A stretch of DNA of 64,000 nucleotides, taken from NCBI GenBank assembly GCA_054600435.1, contig BAAIJX010000001.1, forward strand, positions 310,001-374,000, written 5' to 3'. Position numbers and translations under genes: made by a program. Below are positions 45,094 to 58,597 of this stretch, one piece after another; the first letter of the stretch is position 1; each line of letters starts with the position of its first letter. The DNA is from Neophaeotheca triangularis. Its lineage: Eukaryota. The notes under the pieces are model-generated. The model did no database searches and was not told the DNA's origin. It saw only the letters and a list, made by a program, of their open reading frames with translations.

Positions 45094-45504
45094 TTTGAAA
45101 AGTATTTCACCTGTCTAAATTGTTACAATCGGTGTGTTTGAAGATGGAGGCTGAGGCATGAAGAACGAGGTGTTGTTCAACTGTTAGCCGGGCCATCCCC
45201 ACACAGCGCAGAGTTACCGAAATCGTTAAATAGCGCCAGAACTAGTTAGTCTCTCATCCTGGGTGACTAGCTACTACAGTAGTATCTTTGACATCCTATG
45301 ACCGAGGATTGTGTGGTCAATATGAAACAAGAGAATATTGAGATCTGGTAAAGCACGGCACAAAACTTTCGCAATAGAGGTGGCATAACTACTCATTCTC
45401 TTCCGCTCCCATGCGTCGTTAACATCCCAATCATTCTCACTTTGAGTCGTCACTGATGTGCAGTATCAACATGCCGCTTGCCCTCGTGGTGTTTTCTGAT
45501 CATT

Positions 45505-47206
45505 CTAAGCCGATGGGTTGACATTTGGTTGCCTGAGAGGCAAGACGCCTCCCTCTCTGTTTTCAGGCGTGGCCGTGCCAGTTCCACCACCGGCAGGGGA
45601 GCCAACTCCGCTGTAGGGCGAGATGGCGCCGCTTGGAGGTACCGGAATCTGCAAGCCCTCCGGACTTCCAGGAATGAGGCTCTGAGGAAGGCCTGGGATC
45701 TGGATTCGTTTAGCAGAGTTGTTATAGGAAGCCGGAATGATCTCTATGATCTCGTTGCGTGGAAACTCGAGCGCGGGGATATCTGTTGCAGAACATGCCA
45801 TCAGATAACCGTAAAGAACACGGAGGACAGACTCGTGAGCGATGATAAGTAGATCGTTTTGCTCTCGCTCGAGCTCGAGGATGATCGGCTCGAGGCGGAC
45901 GGCCAGATCATGGTAGGACTGGGTCATTCGTTAGCATATGAAAAGAGTGCGCATATAGCCAATGCAATTTACATACCTCGGCCCGTGGGTAGCGATGATG
46001 GTAGGGATCCTGCTCGTGCTTTGCAACTTCGTCCGGGTACTGCTCCCTGATCTTTTGCTCGCTCATCCTCTCGCATACGCCCGGATTAAGTTGGCTCATT
46101 TGACTACGCTGTCTCACCCTATAGCCCTTGCGTTCTAGGTCGTGAGAAGTCTCTACGGTCCTGCGCCTGGTGCTCGTCCACACTGTCAACGGTTTGAGGG
46201 CTGTGCTTTCCGGTGCTCCGAGCTCGACCAATTTTCGCCTTTCAGCCTCGCGATGGGCTACCAAAGTGTCAGACATTTTCGATGCGTAGTCTTGACCCTC
46301 CGAGGACAGGGAAGCATCTGCCTTGTAGCTGTCTTCATCCCTGGTGGTGCCAGCGCGGCAAAAGTACGTCTGCCTGCTTCGGATGTGCAAGTTAAGTAGA
46401 TAGAAAACTATCCGCTGCGAAAGGTAACCGAAGGCGCAGTTGTTGACAATCACCCGTTGGCCAGCGTTCACCATTTTGACGTAATGAAGGTCACTTTCTT
46501 CCATAGTCTCGTAATGGGGGATGCGCGCATTGATACGCTTGAGATAGTCTTGCACAGCGTCCTCGGCCTTCCAGTCGACATAGTCCGGCGAGCTTATCTT
46601 GACAGAGCGGACGTTCTCCTCGATTATGCGCTCATCAGTACAATGGCTCTCGATGAAAAGGGTCTGGACATTGTGCTTCTCAAACTCCTTCGCGAGAGCT
46701 CGGCGGCCAGTGGCGAGCGGGTTGACAGCATCATAGATGGCGATTTGCCCGTTTTCATGGTTCAAGAAATGATAGATATCTTCTCTGCATTTCTTGAGGA
46801 TCTTGTTGCGCATCAGGACAGAGGATGTGCTGGCATTGACGTGGAAATAGTCTTCCGGAACATCACCATCTTTGCCTACGTGTGCCCTGCGATAGTCACC
46901 CAAGTGAAAGACGTGTGTCTTGACGCCTAACCAACGAAGGTAGCGCGCCAAAGCAACACTTGTGTGCGTCTTTCCTCGTGCAGGCAGACCGACAGTTGCA
47001 ATTACCATACGCCCCGAATGGAAGAGGCGGCCGGATTCGGTGGAGTACAGCTGGGCTGGGGCCATTGACTCCCTCTCAGGGAGATCGTGGATTGCGTCGA
47101 CATACGTGCTAGATCTGCGGCGAAAGTTCATGGAGTTTGATGCCACATCGGCGGTGCTGAAAGAGTTAGCATGATCGACTTGCATTGTTGGGAAATCTTC
47201 CAACAT
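45505..47206 (-). CDS. 6-phosphofructo-2-kinase/fructose-2,6-bisphosphatase family protein (YLR345W-like); intron 45919-45976
   Basis: Walker A VGLPARGKT, LGDYRR, KISSPDY, RYPRAE|SYHDL...RLEP and IIAHESVLR. The start codon is uncertain (47206 or 47185). Confidence 0.9.
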
Positions 47207-47976
47207 CCGGTTTGGAAGCGATCGAACGGATGAGGCGTCGGGTAAGTAGAGGCTTACAGCAAAGTGTCCATGGCTGAAGGATTCTTTTTGCTTCTCAAGT
47301 AGCAATCTGTATTGTCAAAGAGCCTAGATCGCAGATTTCTGGGAAAGCAGTCCTTCCGGGCAGATGTTTGCAAGAGCAATCAAGAAGTGCAGAGGCCTTT
47401 CGTGGGGCGTCCAACGCTTGGTTACTTGTCAAGCCTGGGAATCGACGTCTTCCAACAAAACCTAGGGATTGTTATCGCGCGGATTCCCGAGGTCAGACCC
47501 ACGTCCTTCACCTGGAGGCTGTAGGAGGTATGGGCTGATGGCGAACTTGGCGCTTGATTAGCAATCCTCGATCGACTGGGAATATTTGTCGGAGAGGCTG
47601 GAGGGAGAGCGAAGAGAGTTCAGTCTGTATAGGACAAGGTAGGGAGGTATCGGAGCTGATATGGATCTGCGTAAGGTAGTGAGGAAGTTGGTCATGGTGC
47701 AGATGCGGCTGACGAGAGCAAGCGCCAAGGAATTGCGGAAGAGACCGACGGCGCGCTCGGGCAAAGCAGCTCGAAGGACGAACTTTTGGCCTGCAACTTG
47801 CAAGCACTCGCCTCGCCCGTCAAACACCATTCATTACCTACCTACCTCCACCCTCCGTCCCCATCTCGCCCGCCCCGTACACACCTCGTCCGCATCTGGT
47901 ATCGACGGAACCGCTGCTGCGCGAGCGAAAGAACCAAGACCGCAAACCCATTCAGGAGATATAACCCCGACACATC

Positions 47977-49272
47977 ATGGCTGCTCCAGCACCCCCTTTG
48001 GAAGAGAAGGTGGCCCCTGTAGTGCCCGTCGCACCTCTTGATGTCACGGTGCCGGCAACACTCCCGCCCACACAATCAAATGGCATGTTGGACAGCATAC
48101 TGGATGTGTACCGCAGCTTTCAGGAAAAGCGAGCTTCCCTCGGCCTCCCGCAGCCTGGTACCGTTGATGGCATTGCGAGAGAGGTGCAGCGCGACGTCCT
48201 CCTCACCAACCAGACCTTCAGTGGTCTGCGCGCTGAGTTGAACAAGAGCTTCAGCATATCCCCACTGTGAGTTCTTGAGGCGCCGAGAGGTCCATGGAAT
48301 TAGTTGCTAACGAATATAGCTTCCAAATCTCGCACGCTTTCTCATCCGGATCCCAAATGCTCTCGCCCTACACTTTCCTTGCGCTCTACGGTACCAACAA
48401 CGTAAGTACTCTGACGGCTAGCTGTAGTAGCGCAATTGGGCTGACAGCCATCAGATTTTGTGCCAGGGTCAGGTAGACTCCGATTTCTCTTTTAGCGGAC
48501 GCTTCAACGGCCGTATCCTCAACAACCTCATCGCCAAAGCCGCTGTACAGATTCAGCCAGGCTCCATGGCGGGACCTGGTCAATCCCAAGTCTCCCTCGA
48601 GCAAGACTACACCGGCGCAGATTTTACCGCAAGCCTTAAGAGCATAAACCCCAGCGTTCTCGAGGGCAGTCTGACTGGAATGTTCATAGGAAGCTACATG
48701 CAAAGCGTGACTCCCCGCCTTGCGCTCGGACTGGAGGGTATCTTGCAGGCTCCCGGACAGGGCATGGGACCCGAGGCAGCGCTCAGCTATGCCGCGCGGT
48801 ACAAGGGTGACGACTGGATAGGGTCTATGCAGCTTCTCACACAAGGCGGCCTGCAAACATCATACTGGAGGAAACTCACAGAGAAGGTCGAGACTGGTGT
48901 GGATTTGAACCTACAGTTCACGGGCCTCAATCAAGCAAATGCGATGATGGGCGGTGCGCGCAAGGAAGGAACTGCTGTTCTAGGTGCCAAATACGAGTTC
49001 AGCCGGTCTATCTTCAGGGCGCAGGTCGACAGCAACGGCAAGATTGGATGCTTGTTGGAGAAAGTGGTGGCACCTCCCGTCCGCTTGACATTTGCCGGCG
49101 AGATGGACCACGCAAAGGTAAGCACTGAAACAGTACAATTGTCGTCGCTGAGCACACGCTGACAAAAGCACAGAACACCGCCAAGCTCGGTCTTGCGGTA
49201 TCAATCGAAGCCTCCGGCGAAGAATTGATGGAGCAACAGGACAAGGTCTCGCCGCCAACTCCCCCTTTCTAA
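47977..49272 (+). CDS. TOM40: Mitochondrial import channel Tom40; introns 48267-48319, 48402-48454, 49118-49173
   Basis: [65 protein letters not shown] and terminal PPF; three canonical introns. Confidence 0.95.
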
Positions 49273-49730
49273 ACACAACAGCCCTGCTTTGAGTCTGCAG
49301 CTCATGCCGCGGGCTCTGCAAACCCACTTTGTACACTAGATGCGACTTCAGGTCAGGTGTTGTGTGAGGTCGTCGAGGAAAACGACATGGCCGTAGGCCA
49401 CAGCAACATATAGAGGGCCGGCTACTGCTCTGACGCATAGCGCGGTGCTTGGCTTGTAATACCAGGTGAAGCGCTCTCCTGTATGTTAGTTAGCATGGCA
49501 TGGCGCGGCGTGACAATAGCTTCGTGTAGATATAGTGTGCGCAACGAGCGCTGTACCAATGTTTTCCACTGATTCGGGCCGGCAAGCGTTGTGTGTGGTA
49601 TAGAACTTCACTTGAGGGTGCCCCTTTGACCTAGCCTAATTCAGCTAGTGTGGTTCCTCCACCATCAAACTCCATGCTACACTAACCGCTCCTTATCGCG
49701 GACGACAGTTCACCCTTTGTCCCAACTACA

Positions 49731-50794
49731 ATGGCGACCATAATTCCAGTCATAGACATCAACCAGCCCGACGCTGCCACCAAGCTACTAGCGGCAGCAT
49801 CCCAACATGGTTTTGTGTACATCGAGAATAACGAGGCCACCGGCGTACCACCAGGCGAGATATCAAAAATGTTCTATCTGTCGCGAGACTTCTTCACAGC
49901 GCCCGAAGCCATCAAAGAAGCCGTCTCAATCTCCTCATCGGAAGCGGGCAAGAACGTAGGATACCTCAAAAGAGGCGTCGAGAAACTTGATTCCCACAAC
50001 CAACCACGAGCAGACGTCAAAGAGTAAGCTAGAACAACCCCATCCCGAGCCTTCTCCCACCGTTGAACCTCTAACGCCCCAACAGAGCCTTCAACATGGG
50101 CGAACCCCTGAACAACACCCTCCAGCAACCGCTCCCCAAACCCCTAGCGCCGCACGCCGAAACGCTCCTGCGCTTCCAAAACTCCTGCCACGAGCTCTCG
50201 CAAAAACTACTCAAGCTCTTCGCCACGGCGCTCGAGCTTCCTTCAAACTGGTTCCAACTCCGACACGACCGCTCCCAAGGCCCTTCGGGAACCGTCTTCC
50301 GCCTGCTCTACTACCCGCAAGTCGGAGATGCGCAGCAGGGCGTCGACATCCGCGCGGGAGCCCATAGCGATTATGGCAGTTTGACGCTCTTGTTTCAATT
50401 GCCTGGGCAGCCGGGGTTGGAGATCAGGACGCCTGGCGGGGAATGGATGGCCGTGGCTGTGGATCCTTTGGCTAATGGGGAGGAGGGGTCCGCAAGGCCG
50501 CTGCCGATTCTCGTTAACATTGGCGATTTGCTCGAGGATTGGACGGGGGGACTACTCAAGTCGACGGTGCATAGGGTTGTCTTTCCCGCTGCTGGGGAGG
50601 CGGGAGTGGACCGCTATTCCATGGCTTATTTCTGTCATCCTTTGGATGATGCTGAGTTGGTCCCGGTGCCTAGTAAGATTGTCGAAGAACACGCGAAGAA
50701 GAGTGTTGCGCAGCCCGGCAGAGACGGGGGCAAAGCCATCACGGCGAAGGAGCACTTGATGAATCGACTGGCTGCTTCGTATACAGTCAAGTGA
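49731..50794 (+). CDS. 2-oxoglutarate/Fe(II)-dependent dioxygenase (IPNS/DIOX family); intron 50024-50085
   Basis: IPVID, GFVY, RLLYYP, HSDYGSLTLL (HxD), VNIGDLL, STVHRV and RYS. Confidence 0.92.
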
Positions 50795-51098: not shown

Positions 51099-53546
51099 TT
51101 ACCCTTCGTCCCGGTGCCCATTATTATGGTGACTTGTGGTCGGGCTGGACTCCGAGTCTTGCAGGGTTGTCGAGCCCCCGCTTTCAGACAAGTCGTTGTC
51201 CGCCCGACTAGCCTCATTGGCGTTAGTCGAGGCTCGGAGCGGTGAAGGAGCTTGCGCAGACGAATTTCGCTGTCGGTCCGAGTCGTGTTGTTGATTTATA
51301 CGGGCTGGCGCAGGAATAACAGTGGGTGTATCGGAAGGTCCAGCGCCCCGAGAACTAATCTCATGGGCTCTGGGGGGTGGTGCCTGAGTGGAGCTGCCTC
51401 GATGTAAGAAGGCACCAGGACCACTGCTACTACTTGCGAGTGTGGTAGAGCCGGTTGCTCCAGATTGCTGACTCGGCTCATGGTTCTGCAAAGCCCCCGA
51501 AATCGTAGGCGTGTCCTCTCTTCTCGCTACATCAGGACTCCAAGTACGTCCACTGCCTCGTGGCTGCGCCGGTATAACAGTGACGGGAATGTCGGTTTGC
51601 GCTTGGTCGCTGCGCCGATTCACACGGTCGCGCACCCTATCACCAGTTTCCGCAGCCAAAACACCCAAACGATTCTTGACGTCCCATGGCTTGAAGTTGT
51701 GTGCTGGCGTAGCGGCTCGAGTCTTCTCTCCAGAAAGAGGGTCACTGGCTTGTTGCACTTCCAATGGAGGTGACGCTCGCTTCCGTTTGAACGGATTGGG
51801 TACCGCCAACCACTTGTGGTTGTCCTTGGGCCGTGAGCGATGGGCTTGACCTTCGTCAGTTCCTTCTTTCTCAGGATCTCTAGCGCGACCTAGTCGCTCT
51901 GCTGCCGCGGTGTTGTTGTTGCGAGCTTCTTGTCGCCTGCGTACGGGTTGCGACACTTCATCTACAGGATGATAGTGCATGACGTATACCGTGCTCGCCG
52001 CACTCGTGGTGTCTGCCCGGCTGACGGGGCTGGCAACTTGCGGCGGCGGAGTGGGTCCGCCAACCATGGCTTCCCCTTGTCGTCGTCCGTGGGATGGCCT
52101 TGGCAGATTGCCGAAGGCGACGTTGCCGTTGCCGGGGCCATTTCCATGCGGGCCACCAGTGTTGGCATTGTCTGGCGTTAGGGTAGTGGCGTGGGAATGT
52201 GCCCTGCCGAGCGGGAAATGATGTTGGCGGTTTTTCTTCTGGTGACGAAGGCGCTGCGCCATGTTGTTGATGCCGCTTTCCAGAGCGCTCGAGCCCATAA
52301 GGCCGCCCGAGCCGCCTCCACCATCGTTGTCGTCCTCGTCATTTCCAGAATCGCCAAAGGGGTTTCGACCGCGCCGGTTCCGGCTCCATACCACAGCATC
52401 GCTATGCGTCACGTCTAGCATGTCGTCTCCGTCGAAGATTTCGCGTCCAAGTATGCCATCCTTTTTCTCGTCTCTCTCCAACGCCTCTATTCTCTCCACC
52501 CATTCCCAGACGACGACGGCTGCTGCGGCGGCACCAACCCAACGGAAATAATCTCCCCAGGCAGCAACGTCCGGCTTGCTGACATCCGTGATGAAAAAGA
52601 CGCATGGAGTTAGCACGGCAATGACGGATAGAACCCCAACCAACATGATATTGCGCATCTTGGAATGGTAGAAAGCATAGCGCCGCTTGGTCATGGCGTA
52701 GTAGAGAACCCAGGCGGCATACAGCAGTCCAAGCGAAAGTTCGAATAGGTAACTCAAGGCTGGTATGGCGTCAACAAATTGCCGCGGCCGCCGTGAATTG
52801 TCAACCAGGAAACTGTTCAGACAGGCAAAAGTTGTATCCAGTATAATCAAACAGAAACCAATCCATTTGATCAGGACCTTCTCCTTGTGCCGCGGAAAGA
52901 GCCGTATAAGCGTTTGCACTTGAGCTAGCCAGAGGAATATGTCGCTGATGATCCTCGTCACACGAATTTCGAGAGAGCCCAAGACACCGTCCGCAAGGGC
53001 ATCGGCATCCATATAACCATTGTGATACTGCCCTCTGGAGACTTTGAACGTGTCGTACGTGGCGATGGTAAGCGAGATGGCCACGGTGAGTGCGGCGACT
53101 TTCTGCAGCCAAGGTCGCGATCCTACGCCTATCATATTGGTGCCTCCTCCTGTCGCGCCGCCTATTAAGCCCCTGCCACTACTGAAGTTGGGCGCAGTAC
53201 CTGGATGGCCTAAATACGACGTCCTCGGCGTAATGATGAGCATGATGACCAAGATCCAGGCTATAACGGTCGCGGCGGCCACGACGTAGACTTGGGGTAT
53301 GGTGGACGCGTAGAATGGGTCCTGAAGATCGGCGACGGACGAAGGATCCCCGATATGAGGCGACCAGTCGCCCGTACATGCGGGCTGGAAGATGACGTTC
53401 TCGGTAAGGGTGATGGCCTGGTTTTCGAAAGTGATGACACCGCCGGATGGGAGTGCGAAGGGGGTACATTGCGAGGTGATAGTGTTGGTAGAGGTGGGTG
53501 GTATGTCCCAGAGTTGGCGCCGGACCGCTTCAAAGTCATGATGCAT
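51099..53546 (-). CDS. palH: Ambient pH sensor PalH (7-TM)
   Basis: DPFYASTIPQ, RPWLQK, WLAQVQTLIRLFPRHKEK and VWEWVERIEALER...GILGREIF, then a long cytosolic tail. Confidence 0.92.
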   Translation of the reverse strand: MHHDFEAVRRQLWDIPPTSTNTITSQCTPFALPSGGVITFENQAITLTENVIFQPACTGDWSPHIGDPSSVADLQDPFYASTIPQVYVVAAATVIAWILVIMLIITPRTSYLGHPGTAPNFSSGRGLIGGATGGGTNMIGVGSRPWLQKVAALTVAISLTIATYDTFKVSRGQYHNGYMDADALADGVLGSLEIRVTRIISDIFLWLAQVQTLIRLFPRHKEKVLIKWIGFCLIILDTTFACLNSFLVDNSRRPRQFVDAIPALSYLFELSLGLLYAAWVLYYAMTKRRYAFYHSKMRNIMLVGVLSVIAVLTPCVFFITDVSKPDVAAWGDYFRWVGAAAAAVVVWEWVERIEALERDEKKDGILGREIFDGDDMLDVTHSDAVVWSRNRRGRNPFGDSGNDEDDNDGGGGSGGLMGSSALESGINNMAQRLRHQKKNRQHHFPLGRAHSHATTLTPDNANTGGPHGNGPGNGNVAFGNLPRPSHGRRQGEAMVGGPTPPPQVASPVSRADTTSAASTVYVMHYHPVDEVSQPVRRRQEARNNNTAAAERLGRARDPEKEGTDEGQAHRSRPKDNHKWLAVPNPFKRKRASPPLEVQQASDPLSGEKTRAATPAHNFKPWDVKNRLGVLAAETGDRVRDRVNRRSDQAQTDIPVTVIPAQPRGSGRTWSPDVARREDTPTISGALQNHEPSQQSGATGSTTLASSSSGPGAFLHRGSSTQAPPPRAHEISSRGAGPSDTPTVIPAPARINQQHDSDRQRNSSAQAPSPLRASTNANEASRADNDLSESGGSTTLQDSESSPTTSHHNNGHRDEG

Positions 53547-53747
53547 TGCCTTGCGCGGTGGACGAACGCGGTTTTATTGTCCACAAGGCGCGCGGGTGTC
53601 TCTTAGACTCGAGGGTCAATCGGGTGGGCGCAGCATTGAAAGGATGAGCGGTAGGCGCAGTTTGGGGATGAGCAGCGCGATGATGGCGGCGAGGGTGGGG
53701 GGCGAGGCAGCGATGAAGGGTCGGGCGATGGGTCGGTGGCGGCGGAG

Positions 53748-53830
53748 GTGGTGGTTGTGGTGGTGGTGGTGGTTGTGGTGGTGGTGGTGGTTGTGGTGGT
53801 GGTTGTGGTGGTGGTGGTGGTTGTGGTGGT
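53748..53830. repeat. Compound (TGG/TTG)n trinucleotide repeat upstream of palH
   Basis: About 27 GT-rich triplets read directly. Confidence 0.9.
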
Positions 53831-54396
53831 GCAAGGCGATGTAAGGTTGGCCGACGTGTGTTCTGGCCTGGGCTGGGCTAGGCGGAAGCGTGAGTGGGTA
53901 GTTTAAGTTGGGTCGTCTGGTGCAGGGCAGCGATGGCGCGGATGGGTGAGGAGAAGCGTGTGAGGTTGTCTTGGCTTGGCCCCCAGGTGTCAGCCCTAAG
54001 TCAGTAAAGAGTTAGCGTGGGTGTGCTAGTACTGATTCGGAAAACGTGGGACATCCTCGCGGCCAGTGCACCAACAAGACTTTGTGAGAAGCTGCACATC
54101 TTGCACACGATCTTGCCGAGCTTGCTTGCCTTTTGCTTATCGCCCACGTGATGCTGCCTCCCCACCGCTCCGGTCGTCGCTCCCGTCCGGGTCCGTTGGT
54201 CTTGATGCCGTCACGTGAGACCACATGTTGTGCACGTGGTGATAACGTTAGCCTAGGTTAAGCAGACTGTCACCTCCTCTCTCGACCATCTGTTACCGAC
54301 CGTGCGTGCAACTACCACTCATTATTTAAAAACAAAACACGTTCAGACTTCTAAGAGTAGGTTGTAGAAGCAAACATCACCCCTACTCCAACTACC

Positions 54397-55463
54397 ATGA
54401 CAGCCTCATTGAAATCACTACATCCATTCCTGGAATCTCATTCCACCCAGACCAGCTCTGGATGTACCGTCAAAAGCTACTCATTCCATCATGCCTCAGG
54501 CCCAGTATTGCTCATGGTACATGGCTACCCTCAAAGTAGTTATAGTAAGTGTGACCACCAGGCCCGCCGAGACTTGGAAAATAGCGATACTGATCTCTAT
54601 ACAGTGTAAGCATCGCCCACCATGTTCCACTTCGACAAAGTGTTGATCAACCCAGGTGGCGCCACATGATCCCCGACGTGAAGGACAAATTCTCTCTCTT
54701 CATTCCTGAACTCCCTGGCTACGGTATTTCCTCGCTACCTCCGCAGCATGACAAACGCACCGTTGGCCGCATCATAATTGAAGCGTGCAAGAAGGTGCTC
54801 GGTCAGGATCGACCCATCATATGGTGCGGACACGACAGAGGGGCTCGCGTGGGGCACCGCCTGCTCGTAGACGCCGACCCTGCGCACAAACTCCGCGCTG
54901 CCATTCTAATGGACATTGTCCCTACCATAGAGCAATGGCGCTGCTTCTCGAATCCGGCGGCCAGCATGGGGTACTTCCACTGGCCGTTCCTAGCCCTGCC
55001 GACTGCTCCCGACATGATTGATGCCATGGGTGGCGATTTCTTTTGCCGCCAGATTCTGAACAAGGGCGCTTCGGCCAACGAGGCGGGCGCGAACTCTATC
55101 CAGGCTGATGGCGCGTACGAACTTTACTGCGAGCAATTCAAGAAGCGCGAAACCATCGAGGGGAGTTGTGCTGATTATGCTTCGGCCTCTGCGGCAGGCG
55201 CTGAGTTGGAGGAGCAGAAGAAGGACCAGGCTGAGGGGAGAAAGGTCTCGCAGCCCATGATGGTGATTTACTCTGCTGGTAGCTTGGGGAGAATGCACGA
55301 TGTGGAGAGCATCTGGCCGCTGTGGGCGGATGGTGAATTGAAGCAAGTAGGTATTGGAGAGGGCCACGGGCACTACTTGCCCGAGAGCTGTCCTGAGGCG
55401 ATTACGGACCTAGTGCTCAAGTGGACAAGCAAGGTACAACAATCCGCTGGATGGCGTCTTTGA
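54397..55463 (+). CDS. Alpha/beta-hydrolase, fluoroacetate/haloacetate dehalogenase-like; exons 54397-54544, 54605, 54656-55463
   Basis: HGYPQ, PGYG, GHDRGAR, LMDIVPT, YFHWPF, CADY and GHYLPE motifs. Confidence 0.88.
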
Positions 55464-55499
55464 ATTGCAAGAAAGCTTTCTCCAGTGAGCGTTACAACG

Positions 55500-56984
55500 C
55501 TAGAATGGTTTGTCTATGTATCCAGTCCTGCAAACCGGCTGTGACCAGCCCGCACTCCATCGCACACCTCCCATGATCGCAATCAAAAGACACAGTCCAC
55601 CCGCCGTACTCGCAATAGCGTAGAAATACGCATGCTTCAGCCTTAACCCGTTAATCTCCGCAACCCAAGTGGAAACAGTGGTAAGACAACCGCAAAAACC
55701 ATCCTCAATTCCTTGCAACACCTGGCAGCCCACTCGGCCGCCACCAGGCATACCCCCGACGCCGACGCCAACGTGCTGAATATCGTAGCACATGCCAAGA
55801 ATCGCCGTGCCCAGCATGTTGACAGCAAAGGTCCCCAATGGGAACCAAGGCACAAGACCGTTTAACTCCCGCGATGCATAGAACCGAAGCAGGCACCCCA
55901 GCGGTGCGAAAACGAGCGCGAAGAGTACCTCGCCTCGCCAAGTATCGGATGGAGGCCAAATGGAAAGAAAGACTGCTCCAAGCCATGAGCCGAACCCAAG
56001 AAATACGGCAATGGGGTTAATAATGCGACGGACGACGCTTTTGCTGAAATTAGGCGTCACGCTGTCGAGGAAGACGGCGACGTGTGCGCCTACTTTGAGC
56101 GCACCTATGCACAAGGCAATTGTGAGGAGTATGACAGCCAGCACGGCCTCGACTGAGTAGCCGTTGTGGCGGCTTCTAGTGGAATTTGGAAGGATATCGC
56201 TACCGGCTGGTGTAGGGTGGTTGAGAGGAGTCGGAAGGTCATTGGACAAGGCCAGGAAAACGTCGCGCTCAAAAGACGAAAAGGAGGTGAAGCTGCCACA
56301 AAAGCCGGTTGCGAGGCCGATGTATAGCGATATCGTTTTCTTCCGTTTGGAACTCTCTGCTTTTTGCTCGGCCGCCAAGTCGGCTGAATGCTGTGATTGC
56401 CTGTGGTGATGCTTCATTTCCAGTGCCGTATTTGCTTCGTCGTCTCTGAAAAGATTTTGGTCTTCCGCCAGGAAGCCCATGAGGAAGGACCCAGCAACAT
56501 TTGCCCAAAGAACCGGCGTGACTGCAGGGGCTCCCGCGTAGAATGTCAGCCATTGCAGTCCGAGTCTTGCAAGTGTCCCGAATATGGAGAAGAGGACGAG
56601 GTACGCCGCGGCGTATAACTCTGTCAACCATCGTGGTAGTCTATCGACCGGCTCCGTCGGCAGGTAACTCGCTGGCTGTCTCTGGTGAAAGGCGGGCGGC
56701 TGAGCGCTATCGGAAGATTCTGAAAAGTCCCCTTGACTGGTTCCGGCACCGCTTTGTTGGCGATTCTCATCGTCTCGCTCATCCTCCAGGGTGTGTTCTC
56801 GGCGACCGTCCTCAAATTTTCGGTCAACGGGCGGCGGGACTGCCACTTCGTCTAGGCCTTCGAATTCTGAGGTTTGTTGAGTGCTAGTGCGCTTTCCCTT
56901 GCCACGATCGCTCTCATGGCTGATGCCCTGGTTTCCCGGCGTGACGAGCGACTTGGGTTCCTGTGAGGACGATGCTTCCGGCAT
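55500..56984 (-). CDS. FEX1: Fluoride exporter FEX (two fused CrcB/Fluc domains)
   Basis: Domain 1: GTLARL, ANVAGSFLMG, GFCGSFTSFSSF. Domain 2: GCLLRF, GTFAVNMLG, GFCGCLTTVST. First in-frame ATG at 56984. Confidence 0.93.
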   Translation of the reverse strand: MPEASSSQEPKSLVTPGNQGISHESDRGKGKRTSTQQTSEFEGLDEVAVPPPVDRKFEDGRREHTLEDERDDENRQQSGAGTSQGDFSESSDSAQPPAFHQRQPASYLPTEPVDRLPRWLTELYAAAYLVLFSIFGTLARLGLQWLTFYAGAPAVTPVLWANVAGSFLMGFLAEDQNLFRDDEANTALEMKHHHRQSQHSADLAAEQKAESSKRKKTISLYIGLATGFCGSFTSFSSFERDVFLALSNDLPTPLNHPTPAGSDILPNSTRSRHNGYSVEAVLAVILLTIALCIGALKVGAHVAVFLDSVTPNFSKSVVRRIINPIAVFLGFGSWLGAVFLSIWPPSDTWRGEVLFALVFAPLGCLLRFYASRELNGLVPWFPLGTFAVNMLGTAILGMCYDIQHVGVGVGGMPGGGRVGCQVLQGIEDGFCGCLTTVSTWVAEINGLRLKHAYFYAIASTAGGLCLLIAIMGGVRWSAGWSQPVCRTGYIDKPF

Positions 56985-57812
56985 CGAGGCAGTGTAGCAG
57001 TGGAATGCTTTCAATGAGCGCTCCCAACTTGAAAATACAGCGCCGACTATGTCATAGTCACAGCCCCTGAAAAACGCTCGATGGCGATCACGGCAGAGGT
57101 GTTGATCCGGATGGCAGAACACAGAAACAAAAACCTCCAGGGGGCAGCGGACAAATGATAATAAGAATCGAGGTATGTCAATAGAGTTACGGCTATCGGA
57201 TCAACAGGCCCGGTGTTCGAACATTCTGTGCCGACGACAATGATGATAATAATAATGGCATCTTCGGGAGGTGATGACGATGCCAGGGATGTTTACGGTT
57301 TGCACTCCCGTTCTGCAGAGGTGGTGGCCCTGGTGGAGGTTGCGCACTGTGGCACTACTAGGAGGTACTGGCAAGTGGCAACTCAGATCAGGTGCTCACC
57401 TGCAGTGCCTCCACGACTCGGACGGATTGAGTTTTCGAGGGCCGGAAAGTTGAAAGCTCAAGGTATGAAGCCGCTTCGCTCTTCCGCTCGCCGCTTCCGA
57501 CTTAGCTTGGCCGTGATAGCGCAAGGTCGTAGTACTAACCGCCCATCTGCCGTAACTAACGCTTGCTAAGGTCGAGCGGCTCTTGCTTACCTTATCAGCC
57601 TTATCGTCGTTATCTCTGGGCCCCGCGTTCACGTGTCAAGCACAAGATAAGACGTCAACAACGACGTCTATGGTCGTACCCAGGTCGTCTACGTTGTTGT
57701 GACCGCCGAGATAAACAATCTCGACATATATCTGTACTGTCAATACATAGTATCAAACAACCATCTACTCCCCAACGAGCCCCTTCTTACTACCTTCGCG
57801 CAAATCAACGAC

Positions 57813-58597
57813 ATGTCGTCAAACGTACACATCTCCCAGCACCCTTGCCTTGTAGCGAAACTCAGTCAACTTCGTTCTGCCTCAACAAACGCTCGCGACA
57901 CCAAAGCCCTTGTTCATGAGATATCCTCGATAGTAGCCTGTGAGGCGCTGTCCCATGGCTTGCAAACCGTAGAGACAGGCACCGTAAGCTCCCTCCACCC
58001 CTTCCCCAATTCAGCCGTCCCAGGCTGACAACTTCCGCAGGCCGAGCAGTAGTAGTAAATCGCTGACACAATCCACCGTTTTTCGTGATGTAGGACCAAA
58101 GCCCGCTAGGCTACGAGTACAAGACCAAAGGTATTTCGCCAGCCCGGCTCAGCATAGTACCTATCCTCCGTTCCGGCCTGTCGATGCTCGAAGCTGTCCA
58201 AGCCCTCTTACCAGGCCCCGTCCCCGTCCACCACTTGGGCATGTACCGAGAGAAGAGTACGCTCCAACCGGTAGAATACTACAACAACCTGCCATATCAC
58301 AAAGCTGGAGATCAGTCTCGGGGAGTGTCGGACCTGGCTATCATCGTTGACCCCATCATTGCGACTGGTTCGACGGTATGCGCGGCCATAGATACGCTGA
58401 GGGACTGGGGTGTCTCGCGCATCATTGCAATTTCAGTGCTAGCGAGCAAGGACGGGTTGCAGCGAGCTGCCGAGGCTTGGCCTGAAGGTGCCGAGCTTTG
58501 GGTAGGAGGCATGGACGGGGAAACAGACGGAAAGGGCATGATCAAGCCTGGTCTCGGGGATATTGGTGACAGACTGTATCTTACGGTCGGCAAGTGA
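57813..58597 (+). CDS. Uracil phosphoribosyltransferase; intron 57984-58093
   Basis: HPCLVAKLSQLR, VPILRSGL, PVEYY, DPIIATGST and IKPGLGDIGDRLY. Confidence 0.92.

Follow-up and report, generated by a model that had tools for sequence, protein, structure and literature searches.

Enzymes that cut the carbon-fluorine (C-F) bond, together with the means of surviving the fluoride that they release, are central to work on the biodegradation of organofluorines and per- and polyfluoroalkyl substances (PFAS), and the molecular knowledge of them is nearly all bacterial. The closest described gene arrangement is that of Caballeronia sp. S22, whose 172-kb plasmid carries a fluoroacetate dehalogenase (FAcD) homologue directly beside crcB; in the available part of that report, the authors read the CrcB exporter as clearing the fluoride made by dehalogenation (PMC11812338). 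The plasmid-borne cluster also holds a fluoroacetyl-CoA thioesterase and an aconitate methyltransferase, and the host grows on fluoroacetate. In contrast, the pair of genes described here is convergent and has PalH and UPRT (uracil phosphoribosyltransferase) as neighbors. It lies in 64,000 nucleotides of Neophaeotheca triangularis (GenBank assembly GCA_054600435.1, contig BAAIJX010000001.1, positions 310,001 to 374,000 of the forward strand), a stretch hereafter called the window, and consists of a FAcD-like hydrolase gene and the gene of a FEX fluoride export channel.

The need for fluoride export during defluorination is stressed in the available sections of two reviews (PMC11139923, PMC11777429). 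Fluoroacetate degraders are known in Fusarium, Aspergillus, and Penicillium, and the 62-kDa defluorinating enzyme of Fusarium solani is entered with its gene as N.D. (not determined) in the table of a 2017 review, of which part was available (PMC5485738). In the full-text literature, with subscription-only papers outside the scope, neither a characterized fungal FAcD gene or family member nor a description of a fungal FAcD-FEX neighborhood was found, in keeping with the initial annotation of the window, which had considered the arrangement undescribed in fungi.

A whole group of Dothideomycetes carries an uncharacterized hydrolase with every active-site residue of the bacterial FAcDs, in many cases directly beside the gene of a fluoride channel. 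The most useful product of the locus is a testable candidate for a fungal fluoroacetate dehalogenase gene, proposed from sequence and modeled structure. As for the adjacency, the preferred reading, with a probability of roughly 0.6, is that of two independently functioning genes held by inherited compact microsynteny. Even if the synteny is merely inherited, the fungal degradation of fluoroacetate, for which the available part of PMC5485738 lists no gene, has a concrete candidate in this family.

The hydrolase and the fluoride channel

Pfam returns only a generic Abhydrolase_1 match for the hydrolase, and its best solved relative is RPA1163 (3r3u; E 4.2e-29 over residues 1-258 of 268, ~30% identity). 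Daro3835, Delftia D4B, and Burkholderia FA1 come next among the solved relatives, and scattered between these FAcDs are Alr0039, a "probable epoxide hydrolase" of P. aeruginosa, and a "putative acyltransferase". Eight RPA1163 positions, namely D110, R111, R114, D134, H155, W156, Y219, and H280 (a numbering confirmed by count along the aligned chain, with an offset of 2), are all identical in the aligned hydrolase, where the key residues are D60, R61, R64, D86, H108, W109, Y174, and H239 in exon-2 numbering. Across 65 fungal homologues, the eight positions are invariant, five rows having alignment gaps there. Specifically, the putative Asp nucleophile, His base, and Asp acid (D60, H239, and D86) are invariant save for alignment gaps, the carboxylate-binding Arg pair (R61, R64) with its identical HDRGARV motif is present in 65/65 rows, and the halide pocket retains H108 and W109 in 64 of the 65 rows (one gap) and Y174 in all of them. 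Moreover, the AlphaFold model of the exon-2 protein (pLDDT 85, pTM 0.85) displays an alpha/beta-hydrolase core with a helical cap, and its top Foldseek matches are FAcD structures (TM 0.80, root-mean-square deviation ~2.9 Å); alignment and model both cover the exon-2 protein, the N-terminal 51 residues lying outside them. RPA1163, Daro3835 (8sdc), and Delftia D4B (9c9f) share with the hydrolase the same cap-bearing fold, the Asp of HDRGARV, both Arg residues, the acid Asp in (L/M)DI(L/V)PT, the His-Trp and Tyr residues, and the catalytic His, whereas the hydrolase gene, unlike those of the bacterial FAcDs, is eukaryotic and intron-containing. Judged by sequence and predicted fold, the hydrolase is a member of the FAcD family, and the identity assigned in the initial annotation holds.

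As far as residues and fold can indicate, the protein would be a cytosolic alpha/beta-hydrolase in which the two Arg residues would hold a carboxylate of the alpha-halo- or alpha-fluoro-acetate type and the Asp nucleophile most likely attacks it in an SN2 reaction; the His-Trp-Tyr pocket would accommodate the leaving halide, and the His/Asp pair would hydrolyze the ester intermediate. However, bound monofluoroacetate is present in the crystal structure of a relative whose deposited name is putative epoxide hydrolase, so that active-site residues alone are no proof of turnover. It is possible, if less likely than not, that the hydrolase is not physiologically a defluorinase and that its substrate is a different small carboxylate with an alpha substituent (chloro- or bromoacetate, or a carboxylate of the epoxide or ester kind), in which case the FEX neighborhood would be functionally meaningless. 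The relative in question, from P. aeruginosa (4b9a, 4b9e, 4bb0), is structurally close to the hydrolase, other relatives are of unassigned function (3qyj, 4nvr), and the family is widespread and kept across many Dothideomycetes (572 matches at E ≤ 1e-10). Natural organofluorines, moreover, are rare. Conversely, the residues that are invariant in the 65 fungal rows are those that bind fluoroacetate and stabilize the halide in RPA1163, and the best sequence and fold matches, RPA1163, Daro3835, and D4B, are all deposited as FAcDs. The fungal clade is well separated, its bacterial matches reaching only 26-35% identity. Peroxisomal targeting of the hydrolase was considered and rejected, as the C-terminus (...GWRL) does not match the canonical type 1 peroxisomal targeting signal and the ends of the orthologues differ.

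The identity of the channel holds as well: Pfam CRCB matches in two stretches (E 5.4e-33), and a solved chain of Fluoride export protein 1 (11wr_C) aligns over both halves (E 1.2e-32), compared with ~1e-4 for the bacterial Flucs, in agreement with the FEX assignment made at the outset. The two-CrcB-domain architecture is common to Candida albicans FEX, for which a cryo-EM structure is available, and to S. cerevisiae Fex1p, and the window protein differs from these by a long, low-complexity N-terminal extension. The pore residues F235, T385, F386, N389, E443, and Y455 were mapped by motif and spacing onto those named for the C. albicans channel in the available part of PMC12808221, and this mapping suggests that the Thr/Glu/Tyr selectivity triad, the polar-track Asn, and the Phe of the N-domain Phe box are shared. 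In contrast, the second Phe-box position, in the C-domain, which is F349 in C. albicans FEX, is a Trp in the window protein (W440, codon 55663-55665). Among the matches listed, the corresponding STWVxE motif occurs in 103/119 FEX homologues, against 2 with the Phe form STFVxE, and the Trp may represent a lineage-wide change of a pore-lining residue in Dothideomycete-type FEX. The channel would protect the cytosol from fluoride. No second copy of either the hydrolase or FEX is present within the 64-kb window.

Distribution and age of the pairing

In named assemblies, consecutive locus tags were assumed to denote neighboring annotated genes, and on this basis the hydrolase and FEX are adjacent in 3/7 comparable assemblies: Saxophila tyrrhenica (tags 007485/007484) and Vermiconidia calcicola (014137/014138) of the Mycosphaerellales and Cladosporium fusiforme (001997/001996) of the Cladosporiales. 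The two genes are non-adjacent, and both kept, in the other 4/7. In Meristemomyces frigidus LTR62 (PalH 000247, hydrolase 000248, FEX 000204) and LTR08 (PalH 001490, hydrolase 001419, FEX 001504), they lie 44 and 85 tags apart, respectively, on the same contig. The remaining two assemblies, Oleoguttula mirabilis and Recurvomyces mirabilis, carry the two genes on different contigs; their tag sets are LTR36 (PalH 008381, hydrolase 008382, FEX 001931) and LTR86, in which the contigs of the hydrolase and FEX differ in length.

A metagenome scan with an alignment of 19 fungal hydrolase homologues yielded 80 loci, 24 of which are fungal-like (38.5-65% identity, with eukaryotic neighbors wherever Pfam matched), the other 56 (26-35%) being bacterial-looking. 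The downstream neighbor is scoreable in 19 of the 24, namely 18 loci with a flank of at least 600 nt and L002, which shows a FEX tail within 249 nt. A convergent FEX follows the hydrolase in three of these 19 (L002, L004, L019), and genes other than FEX do so in L001, L003, and L005. In addition, 16 contigs pair a hydrolase cluster with a FEX cluster by equal longest-contig size; six of them, all below 10 kb (3829, 4296, 4704, 8054, 8661, and 9534), were taken as adjacency by inference, and for the same-size contigs of Zasmidium, Lecanosticta, T. nubilosa, Polychaeton, Elasticomyces, and Baudoinia adjacency is not implied. The hydrolase-FEX adjacency is more than a single-genome coincidence. 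The caution voiced in the initial annotation, that the genes might be neighbors by chance, is thereby answered as regards an accident of one genome, given the recurrence in Saxophila, Vermiconidia, C. fusiforme, L002, L004, and L019; the results are compatible with selected linkage as well as with compact inherited synteny.

The junction between PalH and the hydrolase serves as a control. The two genes are consecutive in 8/11 assemblies (LTR85, LTR62, LTR36, Q7P37, AMS68, CKM354, B0A50, MBLNU459) and separated in three (LTR08, Acrodontium, Rachicladosporium), and among the 11 fungal metagenome loci with a scoreable upstream neighbor (at least 2.5 kb upstream), PalH precedes the hydrolase in four (L004, L013, L017, L019). 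In the seven paired scorings with at least one junction intact, both junctions are intact in 3, PalH-hydrolase alone in 4, and hydrolase-FEX alone in 0.

The age of the pairing was approached through a quick maximum-likelihood tree of the hydrolase comprising 65 rows: the window, the 24 fungal loci, and 40 of the 120 homologues listed, the last consisting of 34 that are named or on long contigs and six on short contigs, a set biased toward adjacency. The tree separates two clades of 22 and 43 rows (SH-aLRT 99 each). The 22-row clade contains Aureobasidium, Dothideomycete NU459, and other distant fungal loci, and FEX stands beside the hydrolase in 0/13 of its scoreable rows; L013, L017, and NU459 retain PalH next to the hydrolase, and a PPPDE/PUL or Hobbit gene lies downstream of it in L013 and L017. 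As a separate observation, the head-to-head PalH-hydrolase pair reaches Dothideales-type sequences (L013, L014, L017, NU459; 42-46% identity), where FEX is non-adjacent, and this pair thus spans the two main clades of the tree. The 43-row clade comprises the window, Cladosporium, Mycosphaerellaceae, Extremaceae, Teratosphaeriaceae, and Polychaeton, and its FEX-adjacent rows are spread over four subclades. Of the seven rows in this clade without the adjacency, six (L001, L003, LTR08, LTR36, LTR62, LTR86) fall in a single 13-row subclade (support 83), which contains Teratosphaeriaceae and in which the hydrolase keeps all eight active-site residues. The seventh, L005, with no FEX downstream, groups with a divergent paralogue of Cercospora beticola (P0084) in a subclade of its own (support 100, stem 0.47) beside the main orthologues, among them those of two further Cercospora species; this suggests a second hydrolase paralogue in some Mycosphaerellaceae.

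On this tree, the minimum number of state changes is 2 for hydrolase-FEX (33 rows scored) versus 5 for PalH-hydrolase (25 rows), and the two counts stay the same after the six short-contig rows scored by inference are dropped. Sequence relationships thus make a single, old origin of the pairing, followed by one or two losses, the most likely history. The raw counts had pointed to a readier loss of hydrolase-FEX than of PalH-hydrolase, an interpretation that was dropped because six of the seven losses within the Capnodiales-type clade sit in one subclade. Judged by counts, hydrolase-FEX is adjacent less often than the control (3/7 and 3/19, versus 8/11 and 4/11); judged by events, it needs fewer changes.

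The synteny survey proposed in the initial annotation does not extend the pairing to more distant taxa. Beyond the fungal rows given above, it is found in 0/136 bacterial-like FAcD-homologue loci (the 56 of the fungal-alignment scan and 80 of a further scan), a set in which some loci duplicate one contig (e.g., L048 and L130) and many flanks are shorter than 10 kb. Specifically, a phmmer search with the two FEX domains against the 14,117 open reading frames (ORFs) of these loci gave no match at E ≤ 10, CLC-F exporters not being looked for, and Pfam found no CRCB in their 121 most hydrophobic ORFs of 95-300 aa. The one known recurrence of the pairing is that on the Caballeronia plasmid described in the literature.

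Probable inherited microsynteny and its alternatives

In the window, PalH and the hydrolase form one divergent pair, FEX and UPRT a second, and the two pairs meet tail-to-tail. Matches to PF08733 and PF14681 confirm the flanking genes as PalH and UPRT. All four genes are kept in order in L004 and L019, and Cladosporium fusiforme has the successive tags 001998, 001997, and 001996, the last two being those of the hydrolase and FEX; where both sides are scoreable (these two loci and C. fusiforme), the conserved unit is the four-gene block and not the pair alone. Window genes located on the upstream side of PalH (45500-50100) sit downstream of UPRT in L019 (16000-20800), and with its flanks rearranged in this way the block is an intact island there. 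Dothideomycetes are known for "mesosynteny", in which small gene blocks are conserved amid shuffled gene order, and the locus resembles this pattern both in the intact block within rearranged flanks (L019 versus the window) and in the split genes of M. frigidus LTR62 and LTR08, which stay on the same contig.

According to the preferred reading of inherited microsynteny, the hydrolase and FEX would have been joined once, in an ancestor of the Mycosphaerellales, the Cladosporiales, and the window lineage, within a block in which two head-to-head pairs meet tail-to-tail; where the junction later broke, both genes would have persisted unlinked. Since neither PalH nor UPRT is connected with fluoride, the retention of the block does not single out the hydrolase-FEX junction. 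Likewise, the PalH-hydrolase pair, for which no fluoride connection is conceivable, is still adjacent at the control frequencies given above, which indicates that adjacency at such depth needs no functional cause. The geometry of the junction may account for its survival: the divergent promoter regions measure about 830-850 bp, as against the 36-bp convergent junction, and a breakpoint in so small an interval would harm one or both 3' ends, so that fewer breaks would survive even without selection. The stop-to-stop spacer is not conserved in length (36 bp in the window and, estimated from tblastn match ends, ~12 bp in L019, ~130 bp in L002, and ~330 bp in L004), and across this range of 12 to ~330 bp breakpoints would rarely be harmless, which would be the main reason why the junction survived.

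Several observations weigh against this reading. Counted by events, the hydrolase-FEX junction is steadier than the control junction, with the 2 changes in 33 rows set against 5 in 25. The FEX-adjacent rows occupy four subclades and no fewer than two orders of a class of fungi prone to intrachromosomal shuffling, and the four-gene block is whole in L019 despite its rearranged surroundings. Lastly, the bacterial FAcD-crcB arrangement on a fluoroacetate-utilization plasmid, as far as the available text of PMC11812338 goes, provides a precedent for a functional logic.

These same features bear on the proposal of the initial annotation, that of a linked unit for defluorination and export. In its strongest form, this proposal would have selection preserve the pair since ancient times in the Dothideomycetidae as a two-gene unit for the detoxification of organofluorines, in which a true fungal fluoroacetate or alpha-fluorocarboxylate dehalogenase cleaves the C-F bond in the cytosol and the neighboring FEX removes the fluoride produced, the linkage being favored through co-inheritance or shared chromatin. 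The complete FAcD active-site set, the old adjacency with fewer tree changes than the PalH control, the occurrence of the pair in both Mycosphaerellales and Cladosporiales, and the block left whole amid the flank rearrangement of L019 are all consistent with it, and so are, within the parts of the sources available, the precedent of Caballeronia S22 (PMC11812338) and the existence of fluoroacetate-defluorinating fungi, with the gene of the F. solani enzyme listed as N.D. (PMC5485738). Conversely, a single origin makes the adjacency statistically one event, the conserved block also holds the unrelated PalH and UPRT, the pair is split in one subclade with both genes retained, and the pairing is missing from the 13 distant fungal and 136 bacterial-like loci scored. 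Moreover, the convergent genes share no promoter, their overlapping transcripts would tend to interfere if both were induced, and yeast FEX is reportedly expressed constitutively. Selection for such a unit is thus unlikely, and so is the ancient form of it just described; what stands of the initial proposal is the identity of both proteins and an old, recurrent adjacency, and what tells against it is the conservation of a four-gene block and the splitting of the pair without gene loss. Were the linkage selected, it would represent a rare eukaryotic example of a two-gene detoxification unit and the first eukaryotic counterpart of the bacterial FAcD-crcB clusters, and a fungal fluoroacetate dehalogenase gene would be identified.

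The proximity of the two stops could also be regulatory, with read-through generating antisense RNA and reciprocal expression, that is, a toggle rather than a module. Overlapping 3' untranslated regions (UTRs) of the hydrolase and FEX are plausible, and at the shorter spacings any ordinary 3' UTR would have to run into the coding region of the partner. The spacer nevertheless varies in length up to the ~330 bp of L004, the pair is broken in several genomes with neither gene lost, and contigs of an RNA library (run X3) do not span the junction, all of which makes a toggle very unlikely.

Gene models and sequence support

The convergent arrangement described in the initial annotation, with 36 bp between the stop codons, agrees with the sequence and with the translations, and the coordinates of the features are collected in Table 1.

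Table 1. Features of the hydrolase-FEX locus in the window (positions counted from the first nucleotide of the window)
Feature	Position	Strand	Basis and remarks
PalH/RIM21 pH-sensor gene	51099..53546	-	PF08733, E 5e-116; head-to-head with the hydrolase, 850 bp between
(GGT)32 microsatellite	53735..53831	.	86% matches; within the PalH-hydrolase divergent intergenic region
Hydrolase (FAcD-like), exon 1	54397..54548	+	Translation MTASLK...HGYPQSSYSK; ATG at 54397; exon end inferred from frame, donor GTGTGA
Hydrolase, predicted intron	54549..54655	+	107 nt, GTGTGA...CAG; frame and orthologues; sole in-phase GT/AG pair
Hydrolase, exon 2	54656..55463	+	In frame, begins WRHMIPDV...; TGA at 55461-55463
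Spacer between convergent stops	55464..55499	.	36 bp; sequence
FEX fluoride export channel	55500..56984	-	Single exon, 494 aa, two CrcB domains; one open frame, 494 codons
UPRT (uracil phosphoribosyltransferase)	57813..58597	+	At least 2 exons; PF14681 on 57651-58028 and 58094-58594; start and intron approximate

The frame of hydrolase exon 1 meets a stop at about 54606, and that of exon 2 opens upstream of WRHMIP. The orthologues share the stretch HGYPQS.YMWRH, and at the junction the splice model reads YSKW where they have Y-M-W, the model containing one extra residue. GTAAGT at 54546 looks like a consensus donor and does not match the phase of the only usable acceptor, which is matched by GTGTGA at 54549. 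FEX starts from an ATG at 56984-56982 on the minus strand and ends with a TAG at 55500-55502 (CTA on the plus strand), and an intergenic region of about 828 bp separates it from UPRT, with which it is head-to-head.

Additional sequence runs cover parts of the locus. A single contig of a second, ~2% diverged strain bridges both stops (run X2, record 5, 55267-56198). The RNA-library contigs of run X3 (a metatranscriptome) match 55160-55362 and 55568-55718 with 100% identity each and represent parts of both genes, possibly through DNA carry-over; none spans the stop-to-stop junction or the hydrolase intron. In run X8, the matches of a 110-kb contig are confined to two short conserved pieces of FEX (90-95% identity), and run X7 provides one 196-nt FEX piece, both uninformative on synteny. 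Lastly, the length of the (GGT)32 repeat could differ among strains and influence the promoter of PalH or that of the hydrolase.

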